From positions 7,436-71,435 of the forward strand of contig CAKOMY010000004.1 in assembly GCA_934096815.1 (NCBI GenBank): DNA of 64,000 bases, written 5' to 3'. Shown here piece by piece: positions 365 through 38,223 of the stretch. A program made the position numbers and the translations under genes. The stretch comes from an uncultured Bacilli bacterium. GTDB lineage: Bacteria; Bacillota_I; Bacilli_A; RF39; UBA660. The notes below the pieces were generated by a model that was not told the origin of the DNA, ran no database searches, and was given only the letters and a program-made list of their open reading frames with translations. Numbering within the stretch: position 1 is the first letter of the stretch; every line of letters starts with the position of its first letter.

Positions 365-2467
365 TTGATAAAAATGTTTGAAAATATAATTAATAAACTT
401 AGTGAATGTGCTAGTAGTAGTGAACTTGATTTAGTAAATAAGGCATATAATATTGTTAAAGAAACTGCAAGTGATGACCATTATTTAAGAGTTGCTACGA
501 TTGTATCTGAATTAAATGCTGATAGTACTATGATTATAGCAGCTCTTTTACATGATGCATATGCAAAAGAAAATATTACCTATGATAAAATTAATAAAGA
601 ATTTGGTAGTAATATTGCTAATTTAGTTGCTAATTTAATTAAACTTAGAAGTATTAAATTAAATGATTATAATGAATCATCAAGTGTTTATTTAAGAAAA
701 GTATTAGTTGGAATAAGTGATGATGTAAGAGTTATAATTATTAAACTTGCTGATAGATTAGATGAAATGCAGACTAAAGAGTATAGTGAAGAAGAAAAGA
801 AACAAATTGCTAATGAAACTATGAATGTATTAATTCCAATTGCTCATAGATTAGGTATTAATAGTATTAAATCTAAATTAGAAAATCTATGTTTAAGATA
901 TACTAAACCAGATGTTTATGATGAAATAGCTGAAAAATTATCAGGAACAAGAAAAGAGCTTTCCGTTAGCCTTGAAGATATGCAAAATGAACTTATTGAG
1001 ATTTTAACTGAGCATGGTATTAATTTTCATATTAAATCAAGAGTTAAAAGTGTTTATAGTATTTATAATAAATTATCTACAGGTAAAAAATGGAGTGATA
1101 TTTATGATATTTTAGCACTTAGAATAATTTTAGATACTCCGGAAGATTGTTATTTGGTCGTTGGACTTATTCATGCTAAATATAGACCAATTCCTAAGAG
1201 ATTTAAAGATTATATTGCGATGCCTAAGGAAAATATGTATCAGTCTTTACATACATCTGTTTTTGGTGTTGATGGTCATATATTTGAAATTCAACTTAGA
1301 ACTAAGGAAATGGATGAAATTGCTGAGCATGGTATTGCGTCTCACTGGTCATATAAAGAACATTCAGATGGAACAGTTAAGAATTTAATGGAACAAAAGC
1401 TTGAAATATTTAGAAATACCATAGATTTAGCAACAAGTGATGCTAGTAATGAATTATTTGAACAAAATATGGAAATGGAGCTTTTATCGAAACAAATTTA
1501 CGTTTTTACACCTAAAGGTGATGTAATGGAACTTCCACTTGGTTCTACGCCAGTTGATTTTGCTTACCGAATTCACTCAGATATAGGAGACCATATGGTA
1601 GGTGCAATTGTTAATGATAATATTGTTCCACTTGATTATGAACTTAATGATAACGATATAATTAAAGTTAATACAAATGCGAGTGCTAAACCTAATATAG
1701 ATTGGTTAAAATTTGTTAAAACTAGTCAAGCTAAGAATAAAATTAAAGCATATTTTAGCAAACAAGATCGTGAAAGATATATTGAAGAAGGTAAAACTTT
1801 AATTGAAAAAGAATTAAGAAAGAGAAAATTACCTTTAACTACTTTAAATGAAGAAGAAAATATTGATAAGATTTATAAAAACTTAAAGATTAATAATATG
1901 GATGATATGTATTTAAGTTTAGGTGCTTTAAGATATACTCCAACCTATATTGTTAATTTAATTACAGAAGAAAAACAATCAATGAATGACTTGATGCTTG
2001 AAAGAGTTAATAGTAATTTAGAAATAAAAGAAAATTATAAGAATGACATTATTGTTGATGGTGTAGATAATATTAAAGTTAATGTAGCTAAGTGTTGCCA
2101 TCCTGTTCCTGGCGATGAAATAATAGGATATATTACTAAGGGTGAGGGAATAATTGTTCATAAGAAAAATTGCCCAAATATGAAAAATATTGATACTAGA
2201 TTAATAGATGTTACTTGGAACGATACTAATAGTGATAAATTATTTATTGCAAGAATAAGAGTTAATACTGATTCAATGAATAATCACATTCTAGATATTG
2301 TTACTAAAGCAAGTACAAGAGGAATAACAATTTCTAGTATAAATGAAATTAATGAAAAAGATGCAGTATCATATGAAATAAGTGTTAAAGTTAAAAATAA
2401 GGAGGATTTATCATTACTTATTGAAGATTTAAGAATATTACCATTTGTTAAAGAGGTTGTAAGATGA
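365..2467 (+). CDS. relA: bifunctional (p)ppGpp synthetase/hydrolase Rel (RelA/SpoT family)
   Basis: 700-aa ORF. HD hydrolase motif (LLHDAY), synthetase block (ILALRIILD...FKDYIAMPKENMYQSLHT), TGS region and C-terminal ACT-like domain. The relA-dtd order is conserved. Confidence 0.9.
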   Translation: MIKMFENIINKLSECASSSELDLVNKAYNIVKETASDDHYLRVATIVSELNADSTMIIAALLHDAYAKENITYDKINKEFGSNIANLVANLIKLRSIKLNDYNESSSVYLRKVLVGISDDVRVIIIKLADRLDEMQTKEYSEEEKKQIANETMNVLIPIAHRLGINSIKSKLENLCLRYTKPDVYDEIAEKLSGTRKELSVSLEDMQNELIEILTEHGINFHIKSRVKSVYSIYNKLSTGKKWSDIYDILALRIILDTPEDCYLVVGLIHAKYRPIPKRFKDYIAMPKENMYQSLHTSVFGVDGHIFEIQLRTKEMDEIAEHGIASHWSYKEHSDGTVKNLMEQKLEIFRNTIDLATSDASNELFEQNMEMELLSKQIYVFTPKGDVMELPLGSTPVDFAYRIHSDIGDHMVGAIVNDNIVPLDYELNDNDIIKVNTNASAKPNIDWLKFVKTSQAKNKIKAYFSKQDRERYIEEGKTLIEKELRKRKLPLTTLNEEENIDKIYKNLKINNMDDMYLSLGALRYTPTYIVNLITEEKQSMNDLMLERVNSNLEIKENYKNDIIVDGVDNIKVNVAKCCHPVPGDEIIGYITKGEGIIVHKKNCPNMKNIDTRLIDVTWNDTNSDKLFIARIRVNTDSMNNHILDIVTKASTRGITISSINEINEKDAVSYEISVKVKNKEDLSLLIEDLRILPFVKEVVR

Positions 2468-14478: not shown

Positions 14479-15471
14479 GTGCTATATTATTTGTGTGTAA
14501 TGAAGTGTTACAGTAGTAGGGAGTTTAGCAAAAATATGTTAGATGAAGATAATAAAACAATACTTTGTAATAGAATAATAAATATATTAGCTAAAAAGGG
14601 ATTTGATAAGATAGAAGAGCCTCGAAATTTACGTTTAAGAGAACAACTTGATATTAAAGAATCTTTTAATATTGTTCTTGAGTTTTTAAAGAAGTTTGAT
14701 ATAAATTTATATAATATGTTTTTAAACTTAGCAGAAAATGATAAAGAAAGTTTTTTATTTTTAAACGAAGATATTAATGAAGATATTAAAGAATTTGCTT
14801 ATGGTTGTGTTAAAGAAGATGGAAAACTTATAATTATAGTTAAAAATAATATACGCGATGTATTTACAATTGTTCATGAGTTTATTCATAAAGTTTATTT
14901 TCAAAAACATATTAGTTCTAAAATCAATTTTAATAATTTTGTGGAAGTTTCGTCTATAACAATTGAACTATATTTGTATAAATATTTAATGGACTATACT
15001 GAATATGAATTGGATGCTGAAAAAGTAATGAAAGAACGTTACTTTTATGAGACATTAACTGGCTTTTATATAAGCTATGTTAATTTTATTAAAGAAATAT
15101 TTAAAGAAGATCCATGGGAAGCAATAAATATAGATAATTATGAAGATATCTTTAATAAAGAAATACAGTTATTACCAGTATTATATAAAAATACGTTTAT
15201 TAAGTATCATAAATATTTTGATGGTCTAATTAAAGAAGATGGTACTGATTTAGAAAATAAATTAAATTTTAGATTTAGATATGTAAATGGGCTTTATTTA
15301 GCTTCATATATTTTATATCATGATGATAGAGAATTGTTTGATAAAATGGGACTTGCAGCATATGATGATACAATTACTTTTGATTTAGATTATTTGGAAG
15401 CTGATGAATGTTTTTATAATTATTTTAATAAGTTTGTAAATAAAATCAATAATATAAGTAGAATTAGGTGA
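14479..15471 (+). CDS. hypothetical protein with HExxH motif (possible metallopeptidase-like fold)
   Basis: The ORF contains IVHEFIHKVYF (HEFIH). The start is uncertain: an internal ATG at 14537 follows a GGGAG-like RBS. Confidence 0.3.
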   Translation: MLYYLCVMKCYSSREFSKNMLDEDNKTILCNRIINILAKKGFDKIEEPRNLRLREQLDIKESFNIVLEFLKKFDINLYNMFLNLAENDKESFLFLNEDINEDIKEFAYGCVKEDGKLIIIVKNNIRDVFTIVHEFIHKVYFQKHISSKINFNNFVEVSSITIELYLYKYLMDYTEYELDAEKVMKERYFYETLTGFYISYVNFIKEIFKEDPWEAINIDNYEDIFNKEIQLLPVLYKNTFIKYHKYFDGLIKEDGTDLENKLNFRFRYVNGLYLASYILYHDDRELFDKMGLAAYDDTITFDLDYLEADECFYNYFNKFVNKINNISRIR

Positions 15472-17234
15472 TTATTTTGTTTAAAGAAGAATTAGAATTA
15501 GTTCCTACTAAACCAGGATCTTATCAGATGTATGATAAAAATGATATAGTTATATATGTTGGTAAAGCCAAGAATTTAAAGAGAAGATTAAGTTCATATT
15601 TTAATAGAACTCAAACTGGTAAGACGGCGGAACTTGTTAAAAATATTGCTTATTTTAAGTATATAGTTACTAATACGGAGTTGGAGTCTTTTATATTAGA
15701 AATTAATTTAATTAAAAAGTATAATCCAAAGTATAATATTTTACTTAAAGATGATAAGAGTTATCCTTATATTGAATATAGTAGAAAGCCTTATCCAACG
15801 CTTAAGGTAGTTAGATATTTAAAGGTTAAAAATAGAAAGGATAAATATTTATTTGGACCATATGTTAATGCTTATGCGGCTAGAAGAATTGTTAATTTAA
15901 TAAATAGATTATATCCTTTAAAGAAGTGTGAAGGAATGCCTAAAGATGTATGTTTATACTATCATATTCATGAATGTTTAGGTTATTGTAAAAAAGATAT
16001 CGACCAAGAAAAAATAGATGAAATGGAAAAAGATATATTATCTTTCTTAAGAGGAAATGAAGATATTATTAAGAGTAAATTAAAGGAAAAGATTGAAGCT
16101 TATTCTGAATCTATGAATTATGAACTAGCGCTAGAGCTTAAAAAAGAACTTGATTATATGACTGTTGTATTAGAAAAACAAAAAGTTGAGCTTAATCCAA
16201 GTGAAAATTTAGATGTAATTAATTATGCTTTTAAAAATGGATTTTTATCATTACAAATCTTGTTTGTTAGGAATGGTAAATTGATAGGCGCTAATAGTGA
16301 AATATATCCAGTTATGGAGAATTATTTAGAAGAATTAGAATATTACATTGCCATGTTTTATAACAAAAAGGAAATACCTAAAGAGATATTACTTCCTGAT
16401 GAGGTTGATGATAATATTTTAAAAGAGATTATTGATACTAAGTTTATTAAAATTAGTAAGGGTAGCAAAAGAAAGCTTCTTAATATGGCTAAAGATAATG
16501 CAGAAATTAATTTAGATAATAATTTTGAAAGATATCAACAAAAATTAAATAAAACTAGTGGGGCTAATGATGAACTATCAGCACTACTTGGAATTGGCAT
16601 TAACCGAATTGATATATTTGATAACTCTAATTTATTTGGTACATATGCAGTATCAGGAATGGTTGTATTTGTTAATGGAATGCCTGATAAATCAAAGTAT
16701 CGTAAATATAAGATAATTGAAGATAAAAATGATGATTATAACACGATGAAAGAAGTAATATACAGAAGATACTATCATGGATTAATTGATAAAGATTTGC
16801 CTGAGTTAATACTAGTTGATGGGGGATTGAGTCAAATTAGAGCTGCTAAGGAAGTATTACAGGAACTTAATCTTGATATAAAAGTATGCGGTCTAGTTAA
16901 AAATGATAAACATCAAACTAATGATTTGTTAGATGGTGATACATTAGAGTTATATGATATTGATAGAACTAGTAATTTATTTCATTATTTAACTAGAATG
17001 CAAGATGAGGTTCATAGGTTTACAATAACTTATCATAAACAAATAAGGAGTAAAGGATCTATTCAAAGTTTACTTGATAATATTCCGGGTATTGGTGATA
17101 AGAGAAGAAAAGAATTAATTAAAAAGTTTGGTAGTGCTAAAAAGATAAAAGAGGCAAGTACTGAGGAAATAGCTGAAATAATACCGCTAAATGTAGCCGA
17201 AAACTTAAAGAAATATTTAGATAAGAATTTATAG
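15468..17234 (+). CDS. uvrC: excinuclease ABC subunit C
   Basis: 588 aa. N-terminal GIY-YIG domain (PGSYQMYDKNDIVIYVGKAKNLKRRLSSYF), UvrBC-interaction region, RNase-H-like endonuclease domain and C-terminal HhH (LLDNIPGIGDKRRKELIKKFGS). Confidence 0.9.
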   Translation: MIILFKEELELVPTKPGSYQMYDKNDIVIYVGKAKNLKRRLSSYFNRTQTGKTAELVKNIAYFKYIVTNTELESFILEINLIKKYNPKYNILLKDDKSYPYIEYSRKPYPTLKVVRYLKVKNRKDKYLFGPYVNAYAARRIVNLINRLYPLKKCEGMPKDVCLYYHIHECLGYCKKDIDQEKIDEMEKDILSFLRGNEDIIKSKLKEKIEAYSESMNYELALELKKELDYMTVVLEKQKVELNPSENLDVINYAFKNGFLSLQILFVRNGKLIGANSEIYPVMENYLEELEYYIAMFYNKKEIPKEILLPDEVDDNILKEIIDTKFIKISKGSKRKLLNMAKDNAEINLDNNFERYQQKLNKTSGANDELSALLGIGINRIDIFDNSNLFGTYAVSGMVVFVNGMPDKSKYRKYKIIEDKNDDYNTMKEVIYRRYYHGLIDKDLPELILVDGGLSQIRAAKEVLQELNLDIKVCGLVKNDKHQTNDLLDGDTLELYDIDRTSNLFHYLTRMQDEVHRFTITYHKQIRSKGSIQSLLDNIPGIGDKRRKELIKKFGSAKKIKEASTEEIAEIIPLNVAENLKKYLDKNL

Positions 17235-17242
17235 TATTGATA

Positions 17243-17272
17243 AGCATAAGCAACACTTATGTTTTTTTCTAT
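17243..17272 (+). terminator. rho-independent terminator after uvrC
   Basis: The hairpin cataag-caaca-cttatg is followed by TTTTTTTC. Confidence 0.5.
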
Positions 17273-17412
17273 GAAAGTTAAATAGTGAACAAATGGTTGT
17301 ATTATTATGAATTATATGGTAAAATATAGCTTAAGTTTATGAGGGACTGCAAAGATTAAGTTATAGTTAAAATAAATAATAAATTATTTTAAATGAAATT
17401 TAGGGGGATTTT

Positions 17413-18438
17413 ATGATAAAAGATAATTTTACTAATATTGATAAACAAATATTTGATTCTATTTTTAGAGTTACAGAAACAATTGAAAGACTTTATGAGG
17501 GATTATATAATTTAGAAATCAAAGGACTTAAAAATAGTGAGGAATATAATAGAAAACTTAATTTGTTAAAAATATTTTTAAAGCAAGAAGAACAATTATA
17601 TAATGATGTTAAGTTTGATAAAAATAAGGTTTATTCTTGGCTAAAATATATAAAAATTGCTAAAAATGTTGGTTGTTTGGGAAATAATTTTGATAGTGTT
17701 ATATATGGTAAATATGAAAATAAAACAATAAGACGTATTTATAATAAATTATATAAGGAACTTCATATAATAAATTTAAATATTGGAGATTATTTAAATA
17801 ATGGATTTACTTTTGTAAGTTTAGGTAATGAAAATAATAGTAATTTAGAAAAGTTAATTTATAATTTAGCAATTACATATAAAGATAAAATTGAGGAAGA
17901 AGTTGATAAAGATTTTAAAAAGACTTTTTTTACTATCTTAAATGAATATATTAATGATCAAAATTATTTAGCAGTTAGAGATAAATTAATTTATACAAAA
18001 TATTATTTTTCGTTTATTTTTAGTAAATCAGAAGAATATATGCTTAGACATAGTTTTAGTGTTCCAGCTGATACTTATTTACTTTCTAAAATGGAATCGT
18101 CGAATTTAGGAGATTTATTTACAGAATCTTTTGAGGATGTTAAAGATGATTTTTGTAACGATTTGGTTACTAAGTATATAAATATATTGATTGATCAATT
18201 TGAAAATATGGAAAGTGATTTAGAAGTTATAATTTGTAAAACATTTATTAGGGCATTACTTATTAATATGAGTTATAGTCGTGTTAAAAAATTAAAAGAT
18301 GATTTTGAATACAGTTTAAATAAATTAGATAGTAATTTTCTTCAAAATAGTAAATATTTTGGATGGAATTTAGTTAATGATTGTTTCAATTCTATTAATA
18401 AAGATAGAGAAAAAGTTAAATTGATTACTTTAAAATAG
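17413..18438 (+). CDS. hypothetical protein (paralog family member 1)
   Basis: 341 aa. Shares architecture and local motifs (LYNDVKFDKNKVYSWLKYIK vs LYNDLNFDLRKIDGWICYIK) with the next ORF. Preceded by TGgTAAAAT (extended -10) and a GGGGGA RBS. No known family recognised. Confidence 0.5.
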   Translation: MIKDNFTNIDKQIFDSIFRVTETIERLYEGLYNLEIKGLKNSEEYNRKLNLLKIFLKQEEQLYNDVKFDKNKVYSWLKYIKIAKNVGCLGNNFDSVIYGKYENKTIRRIYNKLYKELHIINLNIGDYLNNGFTFVSLGNENNSNLEKLIYNLAITYKDKIEEEVDKDFKKTFFTILNEYINDQNYLAVRDKLIYTKYYFSFIFSKSEEYMLRHSFSVPADTYLLSKMESSNLGDLFTESFEDVKDDFCNDLVTKYINILIDQFENMESDLEVIICKTFIRALLINMSYSRVKKLKDDFEYSLNKLDSNFLQNSKYFGWNLVNDCFNSINKDREKVKLITLK

Positions 18439-18451
18439 TAAGGGAGACGTT

Positions 18452-19465
18452 ATGATAAAATATAATATGAGTGAAAGAGATTTGCAAGAATTAAATAAAT
18501 TAATTGAGTTTGAGAATTATATTAAAAAAATATATAAAAGATTAATTTTACTTGAATCAACAGATAGAAAAAATACTTCTAAATATCGAAAATTAATTGA
18601 ACATTTAGATGAAATAGTATATTTAGAAGATAAATTATATAATGATTTAAATTTTGATTTAAGAAAGATTGATGGCTGGATTTGCTATATTAAAAATAAT
18701 AAGTTGACTCATAAAAGAGCTGAAGATATGATAATTAGTGGATATGCTGATTACATAACTTATGAAAGAATTTATTATGCATTGCAGTATATTCGAAATT
18801 TAAAAATGAATAGCTTGGAAGATTTATCTTGGCTTGGTATAAAAATTGAACAAGTCTCTTTTGGAAAAAATGTGAAAACAGATACATTAGATCAACTAGT
18901 AGCAATGACCTCAAAATTATCAAATGCATATTTAGAAGATTATTGTACTGTTGCATTAATGTTTTTAGAAGAATGTATTCAAAAAGAGATAAACGATGAT
19001 GTTAAGAAAAAGTTAATTGAAAGAAAGTATTATATTATTTATATTTATAGAACTATTGAAAAAATGATGTTAAATAATACGTTTGAATTTCCTAAACAAA
19101 TTTATTCTAATTCAAAAATGGTAAGTAGTATATTTAATTATGACGATCAAATTGATAGAGATAATTATTTTTCAATGAGTTTAACAACATTAATTAATCA
19201 ATATATGAATATTGAACTTTTTGATAAAAATTATACTGATTGTATGGCATCTAAGAAAGTAATTGAATGTTTAATTAAAAGTAAACTTGCAAATGTGAGT
19301 GTGGAGATGATAGAAAAAGATATTATTTTTTTAAAGCATAACTTAGAACAATTATTAAATGTTTCAGTTGTTAGAGATAAAGCAAAAGAAGTTATTGATT
19401 TATTAAATAATACTAAAATTTATCGTGAGCGTGTAGGTACTATTACATTTGGTATTAAAAGATAA
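18452..19465 (+). CDS. hypothetical protein (paralog family member 2)
   Basis: 337 aa. Distant paralog of 17413..18438. RBS GGGAG. Confidence 0.5.
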   Translation: MIKYNMSERDLQELNKLIEFENYIKKIYKRLILLESTDRKNTSKYRKLIEHLDEIVYLEDKLYNDLNFDLRKIDGWICYIKNNKLTHKRAEDMIISGYADYITYERIYYALQYIRNLKMNSLEDLSWLGIKIEQVSFGKNVKTDTLDQLVAMTSKLSNAYLEDYCTVALMFLEECIQKEINDDVKKKLIERKYYIIYIYRTIEKMMLNNTFEFPKQIYSNSKMVSSIFNYDDQIDRDNYFSMSLTTLINQYMNIELFDKNYTDCMASKKVIECLIKSKLANVSVEMIEKDIIFLKHNLEQLLNVSVVRDKAKEVIDLLNNTKIYRERVGTITFGIKR

Positions 19466-19496
19466 TAACAATTTTATTTAAAAGGGGGATTTTATT

Positions 19497-20327
19497 ATGA
19501 ATACTGTACAAAAAGACTTAAATTATATATTTAGTGATAAAAAGCAAGGCGACTTTGCTTATTTGTATTCAAGAACTAATGAAGATTTAAAAAGATTATT
19601 TGAAATTATTGATGTTAGAAATAAAAATGTATTGTCTGTTTTATCTTCTTCTGATTATTTATTTTCAGCATTATATAAGGAAGCTGGAAATATAGAAACA
19701 TTTGATATTAATCGTATTACTTATAGATATTATTTTTTAAGAAAATGGCTTATTCAAAATGGATATTTAGATGCTGGTAAAGTGTGTACACAAGATATAT
19801 TTAAAATTATTTCTTCTATTAAAACAGATAATCAAGGTGAAAAAGATAGCTTATTATTTTGGAAATATTTCTTTAATCTTTCAAGATGTAAGAAAGATAA
19901 TTTATATTATTATGATAATTTATTTATTGATATAAATGCTAAGAAAATGATATATGAAGATGATTTAAGTAATGTAGCAGATATTTTAGATGGCTATAAC
20001 TTGCAGTTTAAACATATGAATGTATGTAATGGATTTAATTCTGATAAGAAATATGATGTTATCTTTTTATCTAATATTATGGATTATAATAGAAATAGTA
20101 AATCTAGGATTAATGATATACGTGATAATTTAGATGATTTGTTAACGGATGATGGAATTATTGTTATGGCGCATTTTAATTTCTTTTCGGGATTTAATAT
20201 AGAAAAAGATGTTTTTAATAAAACGTTTGATTATATTCCTCTTGATATTACTGATAGTTCAATAACTTATTATGCTTATAAAAAGAAAAAGAAATATTAT
20301 AATGGTGCAAAGATTAAAACCAGATAA
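19497..20327 (+). CDS. hypothetical protein, weakly class-I SAM-methyltransferase-like
   Basis: 276 aa. NVLSVLSSSDYLF (motif-I-like), IETFDIN (acidic motif-II-like) and DVIFLSNIMDY (motif-IV-like). This is a weak, motif-only call. Confidence 0.25.
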   Translation: MNTVQKDLNYIFSDKKQGDFAYLYSRTNEDLKRLFEIIDVRNKNVLSVLSSSDYLFSALYKEAGNIETFDINRITYRYYFLRKWLIQNGYLDAGKVCTQDIFKIISSIKTDNQGEKDSLLFWKYFFNLSRCKKDNLYYYDNLFIDINAKKMIYEDDLSNVADILDGYNLQFKHMNVCNGFNSDKKYDVIFLSNIMDYNRNSKSRINDIRDNLDDLLTDDGIIVMAHFNFFSGFNIEKDVFNKTFDYIPLDITDSSITYYAYKKKKKYYNGAKIKTR

Positions 20328-20330
20328 ATT

Positions 20331-21185
20331 TTGTTATTTAAGCAAAACAGAAAGGGTGATATCGTGAAGATATATGAATTAAAAGATGGATGTCAATTAA
20401 AGCTAATACAAAAAATACATAAGTTAGAAATATTTGGACAAGATGTTGAAGATATTTCTTATGATATTAAAATAATAACCGATGGTTTTATTGATTCCAA
20501 TAATGATATAAGTGAAATATATGACTATTATTCAAAAGATGATATTGTTAGAACTACAAATTTATATTTAAAAAATTATACTTATGCTATTGTTTTAACT
20601 ATTGGACGTGAATCATTTTATAATGGTAAAGTCGGAGGCGTTATTGATTGCATTAAAAATATTACTTTATATTTAAGAAATTTAAATGATAAAGAGGCAT
20701 TAAAAACAGCAAAAGAAGTAATAAAGCAAATTAGACAAGCAAATAGAGAATATAAAGACTTTTCAATGAATTCTTTATTGCGAGAAGAAAATAATGATTT
20801 TATATTTAACGTTCTTGATGAAAATGTATATTTTGCAAAAAAACTAATTAATGAAAAAACAAAAAAATATAGAGTATCTGATTTATATTTGATAAGTGCT
20901 AAGGGTAAAGAAAGAATAAACTATTTTTTATGCACATATAATCCTTTATATAATTGTTATATCGAGGTTTTAACAAATAATATTATAGAGCCAGATAGCG
21001 ATATAGAAGAAAATTACCTTCCTTCAATTCTAAATGAACTTAATATAAAAATAAGTTTACATAAAAAATTAAATTATTATGAGTTGATATATTTATATGA
21101 TAAGATTAGGAATATATCTGTTCCTAATTTAGAAGATAAGCATAATTTGATTGATAGTGGTAAGAAAGTAATAGTTAAAAAATAA
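20331..21185 (+). CDS. hypothetical protein
   Basis: 284-aa ORF with a normal RBS. No family recognised. Confidence 0.45.
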   Translation: MLFKQNRKGDIVKIYELKDGCQLKLIQKIHKLEIFGQDVEDISYDIKIITDGFIDSNNDISEIYDYYSKDDIVRTTNLYLKNYTYAIVLTIGRESFYNGKVGGVIDCIKNITLYLRNLNDKEALKTAKEVIKQIRQANREYKDFSMNSLLREENNDFIFNVLDENVYFAKKLINEKTKKYRVSDLYLISAKGKERINYFLCTYNPLYNCYIEVLTNNIIEPDSDIEENYLPSILNELNIKISLHKKLNYYELIYLYDKIRNISVPNLEDKHNLIDSGKKVIVKK

Positions 21186-21193
21186 AGCCTAAT

Positions 21194-21244
21194 TTGAACA
21201 AAAACGAACAAAAGATTAAAATTATATAAGAAGTATGCTATAAT
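21194..21244 (+). promoter_or_regulatory. cassette promoter P-A1 with phased upstream direct repeats
   Basis: GAACAAAAACGAACAAAAG (two GAACAAAA repeats 10 bp apart), then a TTAAAA -35, a 17-bp spacer and TGCTATAAT (extended -10) at 21236..21244. Confidence 0.55.
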
Positions 21245-21265
21245 ACCAGTAATTTAAGGGAGTGA

Positions 21266-21895
21266 ATGGTTATGGAATTTAAAATATATTTTAATGATAA
21301 TAATAGTGTTGAAATATTAGATGAAGAACTACAAAAAATTGGTATTAATGAACTTTTACAAAGATTAAAAAATAGTGATTATAATGAAGAACATAAATTT
21401 ATTTTTCTCGATTCAAATAATAACGAAATTTGGTTAGAAACATTTGAAGGCTATGGAACTACTTTATGTGAAATTAATGTTGACGCTAGGTTTAGAGGTT
21501 ATTATGATGTAGATCGTAATGCTAGTTTTGAGTTAAAATTTGATATGGAAAACATTAATTATCATGCATTTGGTAGAGGATCATCTTGTGGTGCAAATTA
21601 TTTTACATTTGGTAATGATGTAATAAATGACATAATAGATTGTTGGTGGGAAAAAGCGTGGCTTTATAGAGATTATGGAAATTTTGAAAATATTTTTAAT
21701 TCTATTTTAAAAATTGAATTTCAAAGAGCAATAGATTATCGGAAACATAATTTTTCTAAAATAAAAGAACATCTTTTATTTTATCAACAAAGGCTTTTAT
21801 TTGAAAAGAAACAAATAGATGATAAATTAGAACATAATTCTTTATTACTTTCAAAATTAGAAGATGAGAAAAATAAAGGGTTACGTATAAAGTAA
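21266..21895 (+). CDS. cassette protein A1 (conserved N/C termini, variable core)
   Basis: 209 aa. The N-terminal ~43 aa and the C-terminal NIF.SILKIE.QRAIDYR..NF..IKEHL block are shared with 22618..23253 and 24005..24649. The central ~80 aa are unrelated between copies. Confidence 0.6.
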   Translation: MVMEFKIYFNDNNSVEILDEELQKIGINELLQRLKNSDYNEEHKFIFLDSNNNEIWLETFEGYGTTLCEINVDARFRGYYDVDRNASFELKFDMENINYHAFGRGSSCGANYFTFGNDVINDIIDCWWEKAWLYRDYGNFENIFNSILKIEFQRAIDYRKHNFSKIKEHLLFYQQRLLFEKKQIDDKLEHNSLLLSKLEDEKNKGLRIK

Positions 21896-21914
21896 TAAGT
21901 GTAAATAATATAGG

Positions 21915-21945
21915 AATTAGTTTGAAATATAACTAATTTTTATTT
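21915..21945 (+). terminator. rho-independent terminator (cassette unit 1)
   Basis: AATTAGTT-tgaaatata-AACTAATT hairpin followed by TTTTATTT. The same element recurs at 23275 and 24673. Confidence 0.6.
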
Positions 21946-21965
21946 GGCTTTAGACGAGCAAAAGG

Positions 21966-21994
21966 TTGAAATTATATAAAAAGTGTGCTATAAT
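21966..21994 (+). promoter_or_regulatory. cassette promoter P-B1
   Basis: TTGAAA at 21966..21971, a 17-bp spacer, then TGCTATAAT. Confidence 0.6.
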
Positions 21995-22019
21995 ACCAGT
22001 AATTTAAGGGGGAATTATT

Positions 22020-22601
22020 GTGAATAATATGATTATTACATATGATTATGTTGGATTAGATGGTAAAGTATATTCTGATTCTTGTAGAGGAAATTCTGAA
22101 AGATTATTTTTGAATCTAGATGCAATTATTTCTTTTAGTGTTTACTATTTTGATGAGCAAGGAAAGTATGTTAGAGAAGCTTATTTTATTTTAAATAAAG
22201 AGAATGAGTATAGCGATAGACTTAACGAATTATATTTTAGGGAAAGTCAAAGACTAATACGTAATTGGATTAATCAAAGAGGCCTTAATAAAAATGGATA
22301 TTTTGATAGATATGATGCATTATATATTGATGGTTTTAGCACATATTCTAATGAGGAATCATTTAAAGAACTTAAAAATAAATTAGAAAAATTAGATTCA
22401 CAAAAGAATGAACAAAATGCTTTATTAAACGTTCTTGGCAAAATTAGTGATTATGCAATTTTTTTAGAAACATCATCGAATACAACAGTAGGAGAATTTA
22501 TGAATCATACTTATATGTGTTCTTCAAGAAATGAACTTACTGCTAAATTAATGGAAATGATGTTGTATGCAGAAAAAGAAAACAAAGGTAAAAGAAGATA
22601 A
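22020..22601 (+). CDS. cassette protein B1
   Basis: 193 aa with a GTG start after GGGGG. Near-identical (only a few substitutions) to 23407..23988. Confidence 0.6.
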   Translation: MNNMIITYDYVGLDGKVYSDSCRGNSERLFLNLDAIISFSVYYFDEQGKYVREAYFILNKENEYSDRLNELYFRESQRLIRNWINQRGLNKNGYFDRYDALYIDGFSTYSNEESFKELKNKLEKLDSQKNEQNALLNVLGKISDYAIFLETSSNTTVGEFMNHTYMCSSRNELTAKLMEMMLYAEKENKGKRR

Positions 22602-22617
22602 AAATTCAAGGGAGTGA

Positions 22618-23253
22618 ATGGTTATGAAATTTAAAATATATTTTAATGATAATAATAGTGTTGAAATATTAGATGAAGAACTACAAAAAATTGATATTAA
22701 TGAACTTTTACAAAGATTAAGAGATAGTGATTATAATGAGGACCATGAAATTGATTGTTATACACCGGATAATACAATTCATTTGCTCGTTAATTGTATT
22801 GATGATGTGGTAAATGATATTTTATACCAAATTTATGTTGAAACTATATATGATGATAAACATAAAGATAGTGAAAATCTAAATATGAATTTTAAAATAA
22901 CTCATGTTCGTTATGATATAGGTTCTATATATAATGCGATGTCTTTTGTTAGAAATTATGATGTATTCAGTAATGAAATGAATAATTTAATTGATGAGTG
23001 GTGCAAAAAGTCAGTTAATAATTTTAGTGAAAAAAATGAATTGAGAAATATTTTTAGTGCTATTTTAAAAATTGAAATCCAAAGAGCAATAGATTATCGA
23101 ACCAATAATTTTACTAGAATAAAGGAACATCTTCATATTTGCAAAGAAATTCTTATATATCAAAAATTAGAGATAGTTCATAAAATTGAGTCTTATTCTA
23201 AATTATTTTCAGTATTAGATAATGAAAGTAAAAGAAAAAATTTAAAGAAATAG
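22618..23253 (+). CDS. cassette protein A2
   Basis: 211 aa. Follows B1 by 16 nt carrying an AGGGAG RBS (co-transcribed). Termini conserved, core variable. Confidence 0.6.
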   Translation: MVMKFKIYFNDNNSVEILDEELQKIDINELLQRLRDSDYNEDHEIDCYTPDNTIHLLVNCIDDVVNDILYQIYVETIYDDKHKDSENLNMNFKITHVRYDIGSIYNAMSFVRNYDVFSNEMNNLIDEWCKKSVNNFSEKNELRNIFSAILKIEIQRAIDYRTNNFTRIKEHLHICKEILIYQKLEIVHKIESYSKLFSVLDNESKRKNLKK

Positions 23254-23274
23254 ATATAAAATATTTTATGTATA

Positions 23275-23305
23275 AATTAGTTTGAAATATAACTAATTTT
23301 TATTT
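23275..23305 (+). terminator. rho-independent terminator (cassette unit 2)
   Basis: Identical AATTAGTTtgaaatataAACTAATT hairpin plus a T-run. Confidence 0.6.
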
Positions 23306-23330
23306 GATTTTAGGTGAGAAATACTTAATT

Positions 23331-23380
23331 TGAACAAAAACGAACAAAAGGTTGAAATTATATAAAATGTATGCTATAAT
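23331..23380 (+). promoter_or_regulatory. cassette promoter P-B2 with phased upstream direct repeats
   Basis: GAACAAAAACGAACAAAAG, then TTGAAA at 23352..23357, a 17-bp spacer and TGCTATAAT. Confidence 0.6.
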
Positions 23381-23406
23381 ACCAGTAATTTAAGGGGGAA
23401 ATTATT

Positions 23407-23988
23407 ATGAATAATATGATTATTACATATGATTATGTTGGATTAGATGGTAAAGTATATTCTGATTCTTGTAGAGGAAATTCTGAAAGATTATTTTTGA
23501 ATCTAGATGCAATTATTTCTTTTAGTGTTTACTATTTTGATGAGCAAGGAAAGTATGTTAGAGAAGCTTATTTTATTTTAAATAAAGAGAATGAGTATAG
23601 CGATAGACTTAACGAATTATATTTTAGGGAAAGTCAAAGACTAATACGTAATTGGATTAATCAAAGAGGCCTTAATAAAAATGGATATTTTGATAGATAT
23701 GATGCATTATATATTGATGGTTTTAACGCATATTCCAATGAAGAATCATTTAAAGAACTTAAAAATAAATTAGAAAAATTAGATTCACAAAAGGATGAAC
23801 AAAATGCTTTATTAAGTGTTCTTGGCAAAATCAAGGATTATGCAATTTCTTTAGAAACATCATCAAATACAACAGTAGAAGAATTTATGAAACATACTCA
23901 TATGTGTTCTTCAAGAAAAGAATTTACTGCTAAATTAATGGAAATGATGTTGTGTGCAGAAAAAGAAAACAAGGGTAAAAGAAGATAA
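23407..23988 (+). CDS. cassette protein B2
   Basis: 193 aa with an ATG start. Near-identical to B1. Confidence 0.6.
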   Translation: MNNMIITYDYVGLDGKVYSDSCRGNSERLFLNLDAIISFSVYYFDEQGKYVREAYFILNKENEYSDRLNELYFRESQRLIRNWINQRGLNKNGYFDRYDALYIDGFNAYSNEESFKELKNKLEKLDSQKDEQNALLSVLGKIKDYAISLETSSNTTVEEFMKHTHMCSSRKEFTAKLMEMMLCAEKENKGKRR

Positions 23989-24004
23989 AAATTTAAGGGA
24001 GTGA

Positions 24005-24649
24005 ATGGTTATGAAATTTAAAATATATTTTAATGATAATAATAGTGTTGAAATATTAGATGAAAAATTACAAAAAATTAGTGTTAATGAACTTTTACAA
24101 AAATTAATAGATAGTGATTATAATGAGGAACATGAAATTGAATTTTATACAAAAAATAATGACAAAATTTCTTTTATAGCAGGAAATTCTTATGAAGTGT
24201 TAAACGGAACTTTATATCAAATTCGTGCTAAAGCTTTTTGCTATGATGATTTATTAGATTTTAAATATATTGGTTGTTTAGATATATTTTTTAAAATATC
24301 CGAGGTTTATTGCTATATAAGCAATTTATACAGTCCTATGCTCTTATATCCAAGTTATAGTTTATTCAATGAGAAAATGAATGATATAATTAATAAATGG
24401 TGGAAAAGCACAGTTAATATTAGTGTAAATGATGAATTTAGAAATATATTTAATGCTATTTTGAAAATTGAAATTCAAAGAGCAATAGAATATCGAACTA
24501 ATAATTTTACTAAAATAAAGGAAAATCTTCTAGTTTATAAAAAAATTCTTTTAGATCAAAAGAAAGAGATAGATGATAAAATTGATTCTTGCTCTTCAGT
24601 ATTGCTATTATTAGATGATGAAAGTAAAAAATTAAATTTAAGGAAATAA
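24005..24649 (+). CDS. cassette protein A3
   Basis: 214 aa. Termini conserved, core variable. RBS AGGGAG. Confidence 0.6.
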   Translation: MVMKFKIYFNDNNSVEILDEKLQKISVNELLQKLIDSDYNEEHEIEFYTKNNDKISFIAGNSYEVLNGTLYQIRAKAFCYDDLLDFKYIGCLDIFFKISEVYCYISNLYSPMLLYPSYSLFNEKMNDIINKWWKSTVNISVNDEFRNIFNAILKIEIQRAIEYRTNNFTKIKENLLVYKKILLDQKKEIDDKIDSCSSVLLLLDDESKKLNLRK

Positions 24650-24672
24650 ATATTAAATATTCTTATATAAGA

Positions 24673-24703
24673 ATTGGTTTGAAATATAACTAATTTTTAT
24701 TTA
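24673..24703 (+). terminator. rho-independent terminator (cassette unit 3)
   Basis: AATTGGTTtgaaatataAACTAATT hairpin plus a T-run. Confidence 0.55.
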
Positions 24704-24779
24704 GTTTAGGTGAAAAATAGTTTGACTTTATGGGCTATTTTAAGTAAAATATTAGTATAGTTGATTATTAAAGAAGAAG

Positions 24780-24975
24780 TAATTATTAGGCAATATATTT
24801 AAAGAGAGAGTTAGTTGGTGGAAATACTTAATATGTAATAATTATGAGACATTCTTAATATAAAATAATCCGGGTAACTACGATATAAGTTTAATAAAGG
24901 CTTTAACAAGTGAAATAAGGTGGCACAGCGGATATATTTCGCCCTTAACTATTATTTCCTTGTTTTTTATTTTAA
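24780..24975 (+). promoter_or_regulatory. putative T-box riboswitch leader of the hisS operon
   Basis: AAUAAGGUGGCACAGCGG at 24914..24931 resembles the T-box consensus AAUUAGGGUGGUACCGCGG. An alternative pairing of GAAAUAAGG with CCUUAACUAUUAUUUC precedes a U-run (24960..24973). An AGAGAGA-rich 5' region and CAU/CAC triplets are present. The full fold was not verified. Confidence 0.45.
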
Positions 24976-24990
24976 GAAAGGATGATTTAA

Positions 24991-26250
24991 ATGATTACTA
25001 AACCAAAAGGAACTTATGATGTTTATGGGCTTGATGCGAAGAAGAGAGAATATGTTAATGAAATTATTAAAGGAATATGTCAAAAATATAATTTTGTTAA
25101 TGTAGAGACTCCAGTATTTGAAGATTCAAGTTTATTTCATAGAAGTGCTGGAGAAACTAGTGATTTAGTTAGTAAAGAAACTTATGATTTTAAAGATAGA
25201 GGAGATAGAAATTTAACTTTAAGACCAGAAGGAACTGCGGGAATTGTTAGATGGTTTATTGAAAATAAGTTATATGGTAATATGACTGAACCAGTTAAAG
25301 TTTATTATAATGAGAAGATGTATCGTTATGAAAGACCACAATCAGGAAGAAATAGAGAGTTTACACAGTTTGGTGTAGAAATGATTGGATCAGATGATAT
25401 TGCTAGTGATGTTGAGGTTATTTCTTTATGCTATAATATCTTCAATTTATTAGGACTTGATGCAGTTATTAAAATAAATACTTTAGGAGATAGAGAATCA
25501 AGAGAAAAATATCATGATGCTTTAACTAATTATTTAAAACCTCATATTAAAGATTTATGTGAAGATTGTCAAAGAAGATTTGAAACTAATCCTTTAAGAA
25601 TACTTGATTGTAAGATTGATGGAGATAAAGATATAATTAAGAATGCTCCTAAGATAGCTGATTATTTAAATGAAGAAAGTTTAAATAGATATAATAAGTT
25701 AAAAGAAGAACTTGATTTATTAGAAATAAATTATGAGGAAAACACTAATTTAGTTAGAGGACTTGATTATTATAATCATGTAGTGTTTGAAATTAATGTA
25801 AACATTGATGGAATTGATACGCTAGCAATTGGTGGTGGCGGAAGATACAATAATTTAGTAGAAAGTTTGGATGGTCCAAGTGTTCCTGCTGTTGGTTTTG
25901 CAATTGGTTTTGATCGATTAATGATGTGTTTAGATATGGCTCATGTAAATATTCCAGTTAATAATGATGTTGATGTATATATTATGTATGTTTCTGATAC
26001 TGAAAAAGATACGGCTTTATATATTGCTCAGAACTTAAGACTAAATGGATTTACAACTGAGATGGATTATTTAGGAAAAGGATTAAAAGGACAATTTAAA
26101 GCAGCTGATAGATTTAATGCGAAATATTTGGTTATATTAAATGATAAAGATTTAGAAGATATGATGGTAAACGTTAAGGATAATGTTACTAAGGAAGAAG
26201 AAAAAGTTAATATTAATGATTTATCTGATTATTTAGATATGAAATTATAG
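24991..26250 (+). CDS. hisS: histidine--tRNA ligase
   Basis: 419 aa. Class II motifs, including the HisRS-specific LRPEGTAGIVR and the GGGRYNNL region. Confidence 0.9.
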   Translation: MITKPKGTYDVYGLDAKKREYVNEIIKGICQKYNFVNVETPVFEDSSLFHRSAGETSDLVSKETYDFKDRGDRNLTLRPEGTAGIVRWFIENKLYGNMTEPVKVYYNEKMYRYERPQSGRNREFTQFGVEMIGSDDIASDVEVISLCYNIFNLLGLDAVIKINTLGDRESREKYHDALTNYLKPHIKDLCEDCQRRFETNPLRILDCKIDGDKDIIKNAPKIADYLNEESLNRYNKLKEELDLLEINYEENTNLVRGLDYYNHVVFEINVNIDGIDTLAIGGGGRYNNLVESLDGPSVPAVGFAIGFDRLMMCLDMAHVNIPVNNDVDVYIMYVSDTEKDTALYIAQNLRLNGFTTEMDYLGKGLKGQFKAADRFNAKYLVILNDKDLEDMMVNVKDNVTKEEEKVNINDLSDYLDMKL

Positions 26251-37864: not shown

Positions 37865-38223
37865 ATTCTGACCTAGGAGCATTTAGTTAAAAATGGATGC
37901 TTCTTTTTTATTTTTTAAAATTTTAAAATTATAAAACAAATAAAATAAATACACTCTTTTAGTATATTTTTCGCGATTTAGTGTAAATTGATTATAATCT
38001 AATTGTTAAATATAAAAACTTTTGATATAATTAAATTACCTAATAGATGTCGATTTACATAAAACCGACTATGTGTGATGTAAGGGAATCTAATTAAAGG
38101 ATGGTGTTGAATGCTAGCTCAAAGAGTTAGAATCCTAAAGTTCTTTATGTGATGCCCACCTGCGAGAATGCGGGATTTTATCACAATTGATGTCTAGTTA
38201 GGTTTTTATTTTGGAGGGATAAT

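Follow-up and report, generated by a model that had tools for sequence, protein, structure and literature searches.

What, if anything, do two tandem A-rich octamers do when they stand directly upstream of the -35 hexamers of promoters in a strain-variable gene island? We addressed this question in a 64,000-nucleotide stretch of contig CAKOMY010000004.1 from an uncultured Bacilli bacterium (hereafter the window), in which the octamer GAACAAAA is found in pairs, 10 bp start to start, ahead of the promoters P-A1 and P-B2 of an array of cassettes of orphan genes named A and B. The original prediction, made from the DNA letters, read the pair as an activation site for a response regulator of the OmpR/PhoB type, through which the array would be switched on by a specific signal, and added that the pair may also act as an UP element. 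It is this secondary suggestion that our analysis favours: with a probability of roughly 0.5, the repeat is an UP-like upstream element made of phased A-tracts and serving a promoter that is strong and probably constitutive, and its distal copy is a dispensable duplicate. Promoter quality, the stability of the proximal copy, predicted curvature and the literature make this the best-supported reading.

The arrangement described earlier, direct repeats 10 bp apart adjoining the -35 at P-A1 and P-B2, was confirmed in the sequence. At both promoters the two GAACAAAA copies are separated by AC, and the -35 hexamer begins 2 nt after the proximal copy (Table 1). The range first assigned to the repeat, 21194-21213, does contain it but includes two leading T residues that are extra, the repeat proper being 21196-21213. 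The third cassette promoter, P-B1, indeed keeps one half-site only, since the sequence upstream of its -35 reads GGCTTTAGAC-GAGCAAAA-GG, with a single degenerate proximal copy. Taken in full, the feature is a tandem A-rich decamer, GAACAAAAAC followed by GAACAAAAGG, which spans about -55 to -36 if transcription is assumed to start 7 nt after the -10 hexamer. On this assumed numbering, the distal copy occupies -55 to -48 with an AAAAA run at -51 to -47, the proximal copy occupies -45 to -38 with its AAAA run covering -41 to -38, and positions -60 to -56 form an AATTT tract. The A/T tracts are 10 bp apart and 2 nt from a sigma-70-type -35, as is expected of an UP element by position. Moreover, the cassette core promoters are the best sigma-70 matches in the window, the G+C content of which is about 24%: P-B1 and P-B2 agree with the consensus at 11 of 12 positions and P-A1 at 10 of 12, each with an additional TG at the extended -10 position.

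As such, a repeat with 10-bp spacing is no rarer than chance predicts. The window has 5 exact 8-mers repeated at a 10-bp offset, where first-order Markov simulations give 4.63 ± 2.21, and GAACAAAA itself occurs 10 times, against 5.85 ± 2.58 expected, a count reached by 10 of 100 shuffles. The 18-mer pattern with up to 3 mismatches has 9 matches in the window (4.07 ± 1.71 expected), of which the 7 outside promoters all carry 3 mismatches and all fall inside coding sequence; beyond the promoters, no further match with 2 mismatches or fewer was found in the 64 kb. The sole unusual aspect, and one that is unlikely by chance, is the placement against the -35 of the window's best sigma-70-type promoters; a post-hoc estimate for this -35-adjoining coincidence is about 0.01-0.05.

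Recurrence of the repeat at P-A1 and P-B2 cannot serve as an argument. The repeat is seen twice in the window because a whole promoter-gene-terminator unit has been duplicated. Within each unit, the promoter is followed by gene B (193 aa), gene A (about 210 aa) and the hairpin of a terminator, and the gene part (family D2) is 99% identical between the copies. P-A1, P-B1 and P-B2 are all copies of one 71-nt module, with identities of 83-94%, and the two that carry the full repeat are 94% identical over the 71 nt. In P-A1 this promoter has been fused straight to an A gene, and in P-B1 a deletion of about 26 nt relative to P-B2 has removed the distal copy. P-A1 and P-B2 are paralogous copies and therefore amount to one observation, not two. 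The joint between P-A1 and gene A falls at a microhomology, AATT(T/C)AAGGG, that is common to the B leader and the B-A junction (21251-21260 and 22603-22617), and the duplication junction lies between ...GAAATAC and TTAATTTGAAC (21940-21965), beside a TTTGA common to the hisS -35 region. The hairpins after the A genes have free energies (dG) of -7.9 to -10.4 kcal/mol and are followed by UUUUUAUUU.

Comparison among related strains distinguishes the two copies of the repeat. We aligned 15 distinct promoter variants of conspecific strains, taken from human-gut metagenome assemblies and two GTDB genomes (loci L043 and L069, titled 'uncultured Bacilli bacterium'). The proximal GAACAAA is present in every variant except P-B1, which has GAGCAAA. 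The distal copy takes the forms GAACAAAA, GAGCAAAA, AAACAAAA, GAACAGAA and AAACTAAA; it is deleted in P-B1 and replaced in L005 and in L134, the nearest AAACAAAA in the latter being 17 bp away. In both L005 and L134 an A-tract is kept at the distal phase though GAAC is lost. When scored as the fraction of alignment columns with at most one deviating variant, the distal decamer is near-invariant at 0.20 of its columns, the proximal decamer at 0.80, the -35 hexamer at 0.83, the spacer at 0.88 and the -10 hexamer at 1.00. The variable upstream haplotypes meet the conserved promoter module exactly at the proximal CGAACAAA, and the downstream genes are intact in P-B1, L005 and L134 despite the loss, replacement or displacement of the distal half-site. 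These comparisons point to the -35-proximal copy, GAACAAA(A/T)NG, as the functionally stable part.

Conservation of the 18-nt motif as such carries little weight, all related sequences belonging to one species complex. Among the loci, uvrC is 90-94% identical and hisS 97-98.7% (92-97% at third codon positions), and because of this identity of hisS, conservation was largely dropped as evidence of constraint. A search for further copies of the promoter returned a single true relative (L143) among 12 matches of the core-promoter scan of metagenomes and none in the viral scan. In L043 (2890-5160, minus strand), the double repeat is complete at both cassette promoters; there, the first gene of the A type is apparently frameshifted, and the second promoter drives a 330-aa protein that has only its N-terminus in common with the A type.

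The proximal motif is also found at a second promoter of the island. This entry promoter, located after the uvrC terminator and before a run of genes for proteins of 341, 337, 276 and 284 aa, carries a single motif copy directly adjoining its -35. In other strains the module GAACAAA(T/C)GG-TTG(T/C)NT ... TAGAAT stands before different genes, and its conserved block begins exactly at GAACAAA, with five different sequences immediately upstream. The pattern GAAMAAAWNG(N)TTG has 2 matches in the window, both of them island promoters, against 0.2 ± 0.4 expected, and in about 230 kb of partly redundant conspecific sequence a looser pattern matches only the two island promoter classes. Downstream of the shared 13-mer these classes are 50% identical, against 32.7 ± 6% for random windows (top 0.34%), and they may be old paralogues. 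The alignments place the proximal copy at the 5' edge of two portable island promoter modules and show the recurring unit to be the single proximal motif, not the direct repeat.

Predicted DNA shape and matches in other genomes are consistent with an UP-like element. By a wedge model with approximate parameters, the double repeat lies at the 96th-99th window percentile of curvature at P-A1 and P-B2, with the peak 16-18 bp upstream of the -35, and P-B1, without the distal copy, lies at the 83rd percentile. The AA periodicity at the double repeat is at the 95.8th percentile. In addition, a scan of GTDB genome contigs with the 18-mer gave at least 119 matches, mostly unrelated and spread over many phyla. 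Among the matches listed, a perfect TTGACA-17-TATAAT promoter follows within 30 nt downstream in 3 of 118; in the opposite orientation none of the 118 has one, nor does any of 2360 random positions. The 18-mer often lies within longer A-tract arrays of 10-bp period that lead to a -35 (TTGACA), for example in L014 and L035.

Two of these loci, L013 (about 1940-2030, minus strand) and L076 (1921-1990), are orthologous promoters from a Bacillales UBA2298 metagenome-assembled genome (MAG) and an Acholeplasmataceae MAG. In both, the 18-mer lies 4-5 nt upstream of a perfect TTGACA-17-TATAAT, the -35 sits inside a terminator-like hairpin, and the promoter precedes a gene whose product starts MKA(I/L)(I/L)SGDPMI, which we take to be a putative 2-hydroxyacid-dehydrogenase-like gene.

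Studied promoters of Bacillus offer close parallels. Among B. subtilis promoters, those dependent on the alpha C-terminal domain of RNA polymerase have AT-rich blocks centred at -43 and -53 (PMC4495994), and one Bacillus proximal UP subsite is CAAAATAGC, two tandem copies of which raised expression 8.2-fold (PMC9655642). The CAAAA core of the repeat matches this subsite. More generally, the repeat resembles the UP elements and phased A-tracts known from E. coli rrnB P1, reportedly from work by Aiyar, Gourse & Ross in 1998, from B. subtilis (PMC4495994) and from Bacillus (PMC9655642) in that A-rich blocks one helical turn apart lie directly upstream of a sigma-A/sigma-70 -35 and that the proximal block outweighs the distal one. 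The A-tract centres, however, are at about -39.5 and -49 here, 2-4 bp nearer to the -35 than the B. subtilis blocks.

If the repeat is such an element, the proximal copy would act as an UP-like proximal subsite, and the distal copy would add a further A-tract (-51 to -47), one turn of the helix farther upstream. Combined with the AATTT at -60 to -56, the distal A-tract would give a phased, intrinsically bent upstream region, which could dock a second alpha C-terminal domain and so raise promoter strength. In such a scheme the distal copy would be dispensable and a dedicated signal-responsive regulator unnecessary.

Several observations weigh against an UP-like element. The E. coli UP consensus is NNAAAWWTWTTTTNNNAAANNN in full, with AAAAAARNR as its proximal subsite, and is reportedly owed to Estrem et al. 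in 1998/1999. The proximal CGAACAAAA agrees with it at only about 5 of 8 specified positions (counted by hand), a moderate match, and the distal subsite fits poorly, a run of A standing in place of the T-run of the consensus. At 77%, the A+T content of the region does not exceed that of the genome (about 76%). Within GAAC, the G and C vary no more than the A residues do, in which the repeat differs from UP elements, and the motif is found only at the island promoters, not at about 15 other candidate promoters of the window. A generic UP element predicts neither an invariant G and C nor a motif limited to the island. Among the 18-mer matches with a perfect promoter, L013 and L076, two of the three cases, are mutually orthologous, which leaves fewer independent cases. 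The transcription start, and hence the -41/-51 numbering, is assumed, and the assignment rests on sequence; moreover, with relatives confined to one species complex, the proximal motif could be conserved by descent alone.

Among the alternatives, it is possible, though we doubt it, that the repeat has no function and is a 10-bp slipped-strand duplication that arose beside a promoter, was copied with the segmental duplication and seems conserved only through the close kinship of all available genomes. The chance rate of 8-mers at a 10-bp offset, the paralogy of the two occurrences and the free variation of the distal copy are all as this explanation would have it. Furthermore, with flanking housekeeping genes 90-98.7% identical, 0-2 differences in 18 nt are the neutral expectation. 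What it does not readily accommodate is that in two promoter classes the variable flanks break off precisely where the proximal GAACAAA begins, and that the proximal decamer shows the same invariance as the -35 whereas protein identity in the neighbouring cassette genes is only 66-80%. The position also coincides with the known contact zone of the alpha C-terminal domain.

A specific factor with the single -35-proximal GAACAAA(W)GG as its target, for example an Spx-like cofactor of the alpha C-terminal domain or a regulator encoded in the island, would co-ordinate both promoter classes and leave the distal copy as a spare. We consider this unlikely, although several features favour it: the invariant G and C in an AT-rich genome, the restriction of GAAMAAAWNG(N)TTG to island promoters, and a motif that adjoins the -35 in two classes with different spacers and forms the exact 5' edge of both modules. 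The architecture parallels the Spx element of B. subtilis trxB, in which AGCA (-45 to -42) and a poly-A stretch (-41 to -36) are bound by Spx with the alpha C-terminal domain (PMC2801614). The motif shares with the elements of trxB, trxA and nfrA (PMC2801614) a tetranucleotide containing G/C at about -45 to -42 and, after it, an A-run that extends to the -35; one copy suffices, and AGCA is contained in the GAGCAAAA variants. However, AGCA occurs in those variants only and is shifted by 1 nt, and the predominant GAAC/AACA has AACA where Spx needs AGCA, and so lacks the G described as the most critical base (PMC2801614). The window encodes no Spx homologue, an association with redox genes is not apparent, and the island proteins are without a recognisable DNA-binding domain. 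The two promoter classes may owe their likeness to old paralogy, and divergence at the strain level is too low to prove constraint. Slightly less likely is the fuller version, in which the motif serves a factor acting at the -35 (a cofactor of the alpha C-terminal domain or a lineage-specific regulator), both classes of the hypervariable island between uvrC and hisS are co-controlled and the tandem copy tunes the strength of the response. If a specific factor did bind the proximal motif, it would offer a handle on the regulation of an opaque hypervariable locus.

It is very improbable that the two GAACAAAA copies form tandem half-sites at which a dimeric response regulator of the OmpR/PhoB type (winged-helix) would bind and activate the cassettes in a signal-dependent manner. 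Known tandem sites are the E. coli pho box, the B. subtilis PhoP repeats TT(A/T/C)ACA and the 10-bp tandem half-sites of OmpR. The geometry of such sites is present here: direct repeats with a period of about 10-11 bp adjoin or overlap the -35, with an ACA core in each. In particular, TGAACA-N4-CGAACA agrees with the PhoP repeat at 5 and 4 of 6 positions, and P-A1 has a weaker -35, TTAAAA. Nevertheless, the model fails 4 of 6 testable features. P-B1 and P-B2, with TTGAAA, 17 bp and TGn-TATAAT, are near consensus and do not have the poor -35 or the look of activator-dependent promoters; the distal half-site is lost, replaced or shifted in P-B1, L005 and L134 with the genes intact; the entry promoter carries one copy only; and PhoP-activated promoters normally have four or more repeats, against two here. 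A phmmer search with OmpR, PhoB and CheY gave 0 matches at E<=10 among the 89 open reading frames of at least 80 aa in the window, so no receiver-domain or winged-helix protein is encoded within these 64 kb. The search for a regulon by the repeat motif, as had been proposed, matched island promoters only, with no further site outside the island in the window and the conspecific sequence, and in two related GTDB MAGs the 18-mer occurs, among the matches listed, only on the cassette contigs. In view of the near-consensus core, the unstable distal copy, the one-copy entry promoter and the lack of a regulator in the 64 kb, an OmpR/PhoB-type site is unsupported.

Other identities were rejected. A LexA (Cheo) box (CGAAC-N4-GTTCG; pattern CGAACNNNNGTTCG) matches at P-B2 only, and its 2 mismatches there are chance level, 65 of 100 shuffles giving a match as good; the -35 itself would have to serve as the second half, and the spacing is wrong. 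The CtsR operator of Gram-positive clp genes (RGTCAAA-NAN-RGTCAAA) is likewise a 7-nt direct repeat at a promoter, with a 3-nt spacer, a central A and a 10-bp period, but in each heptad GAACAAA agrees with RGTCAAA at only 5 of the 7 positions, the genes downstream are neither clp nor heat-shock genes, and the promoter repeat is not among the matches of the operator pattern (RGTCAAANANRGTCAAA) with 3 mismatches or fewer. By eye, an ECF-sigma promoter (GAAC, 16-17 nt, CGT) lacks CGT at the right distance, the CG is out of register for a CcpA cre, and only 4 of 7 positions per box fit a Spo0A 0A-box. As RNA, the promoter region is less structured than shuffles (z = +2.07).

Table 1 Positions of the cassette and entry promoters, their upstream elements and the associated duplication and terminators in the window.
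Feature	Position	Strand	Composition
Entry promoter	17287..17325	+	Single GAACAAATGG 17287-17296; TTGTAT 17297-17302; 17-nt spacer ending TGg; TAAAAT 17320-17325
P-A1 upstream element	21196..21213	+	Distal GAACAAAA 21196-21203; AC; proximal GAACAAAA 21206-21213
P-A1 core promoter	21216..21244	+	TTAAAA, 17 nt, (TGc)TATAAT; drives gene A1 (21266-21895)
Likely intrinsic terminator after A1	21910..21943	+	AT-rich hairpin, then U-run
Tandem duplication	21940..24711	+	Two copies of a ~1387-bp unit: promoter, B, A, terminator (families D1-D5, spacing 1386-1397)
P-B1 upstream element	21956..21963	+	Single proximal copy GAGCAAAA; distal copy deleted
P-B1 core promoter	21966..21994	+	TTGAAA, 17 nt, (TGc)TATAAT; drives B1 (22020-22601) and A2 (22618-23253)
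Equivalent terminator hairpin after A2	23266..23307	+	Family D5
P-B2 upstream element	23332..23349	+	Distal GAACAAAA 23332-23339; AC; proximal GAACAAAA 23342-23349; identical to P-A1
P-B2 core promoter	23352..23380	+	TTGAAA, 17 nt, (TGc)TATAAT; drives B2 (23407-23988) and A3 (24005-24649)
Equivalent terminator hairpin after A3	24663..24704	+	Family D5

The promoters belong to a strain-variable orphan-gene island at 17235-24720, between uvrC (15468-17234) and hisS (24991-26250), which we compared across L001, L005, L006, L007, L043, L069, L127, L131, L134, L137 and L143. The number of A/B cassettes ranges from 1 to 3 per strain, other strains having a single B-A pair, and in some strains a Fic-domain gene (538 aa) takes the place of the 341/337-aa paralogues. 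The A genes have conserved ends and a hypervariable middle at about residues 46-125, and B alleles go down to 66% protein identity. An extra 146-aa gene is present in L001, L002 and L007, and its position is taken by a 133-aa gene in L006, L069 and L134.

The A and B families comprise 31 and 36 proteins, respectively, all of this lineage. A profile of A recovered only its own family from 1.84 billion representative proteins and had no match among the PDB sequences, and neither A nor B gave anything significant in Pfam, PADLOC or PHROGs. The structure model of A is confident (predicted local distance difference test score, pLDDT, 86) and no structural neighbour of it was found; the model of B is poor (pLDDT 57). 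Nothing about A or B hints at DNA binding or at any particular inducing signal, and the idea that the cassette array is switched on by a specific signal finds no support.

Seen by itself, the repeat would add one case to the A-rich upstream elements of strong promoters of the Gram-positive type, here from a low-GC, uncultured Bacilli lineage of the human gut, and matters little alone. The analysis also defines two portable promoter modules that start with GAACAAA, both of which drive a strain-variable island of orphan genes. Their natural series of one-copy and two-copy forms suits the study of how duplication of the proximal subsite relates to promoter strength.

Some further elements were noted in the window and in the genomes scanned. 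The hisS promoter (24710-24760) reads GGTGAAAAATAG-TTTGACT, 17 nt, TAAAAT, and resembles the upstream part of the cassette promoters, ACGAACAAAAGG-TTGAAA. Within the hisS leader (about 24780-24980) the sequence GGTGGCACAGCGG is T-box-like, but Rfam gave no T-box at the gathering threshold. Over the window, Rfam returned only 6S RNA, away from the promoters; this gene (38034-38208, plus strand; RF00013, 50.3 bits) is preceded by a TTGTTA-17-TATAAT promoter with its -35 from 38003. In about 11 genomes of the Cloacimonadota type, the 18-mer lies in a longer conserved context, TTAGCAAC-GAACAAAAACGAACAAAA, that is unrelated to the window (Cloacimonadota and related MAG loci L017, L024, L030, L033, L039, L050, L055, L065, L097, L102 and L124), and some conserved Cloacimonadota element evidently contains it. 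Similarly, four contigs of Bathyarchaeia MAGs (L021, L051, L086 and L115) have about 70 nt in common around the 18-mer (ATAAGAGARACAACCAAAAC...GAACAAAAACGAACAAAACAGCCAA...), a conserved element.
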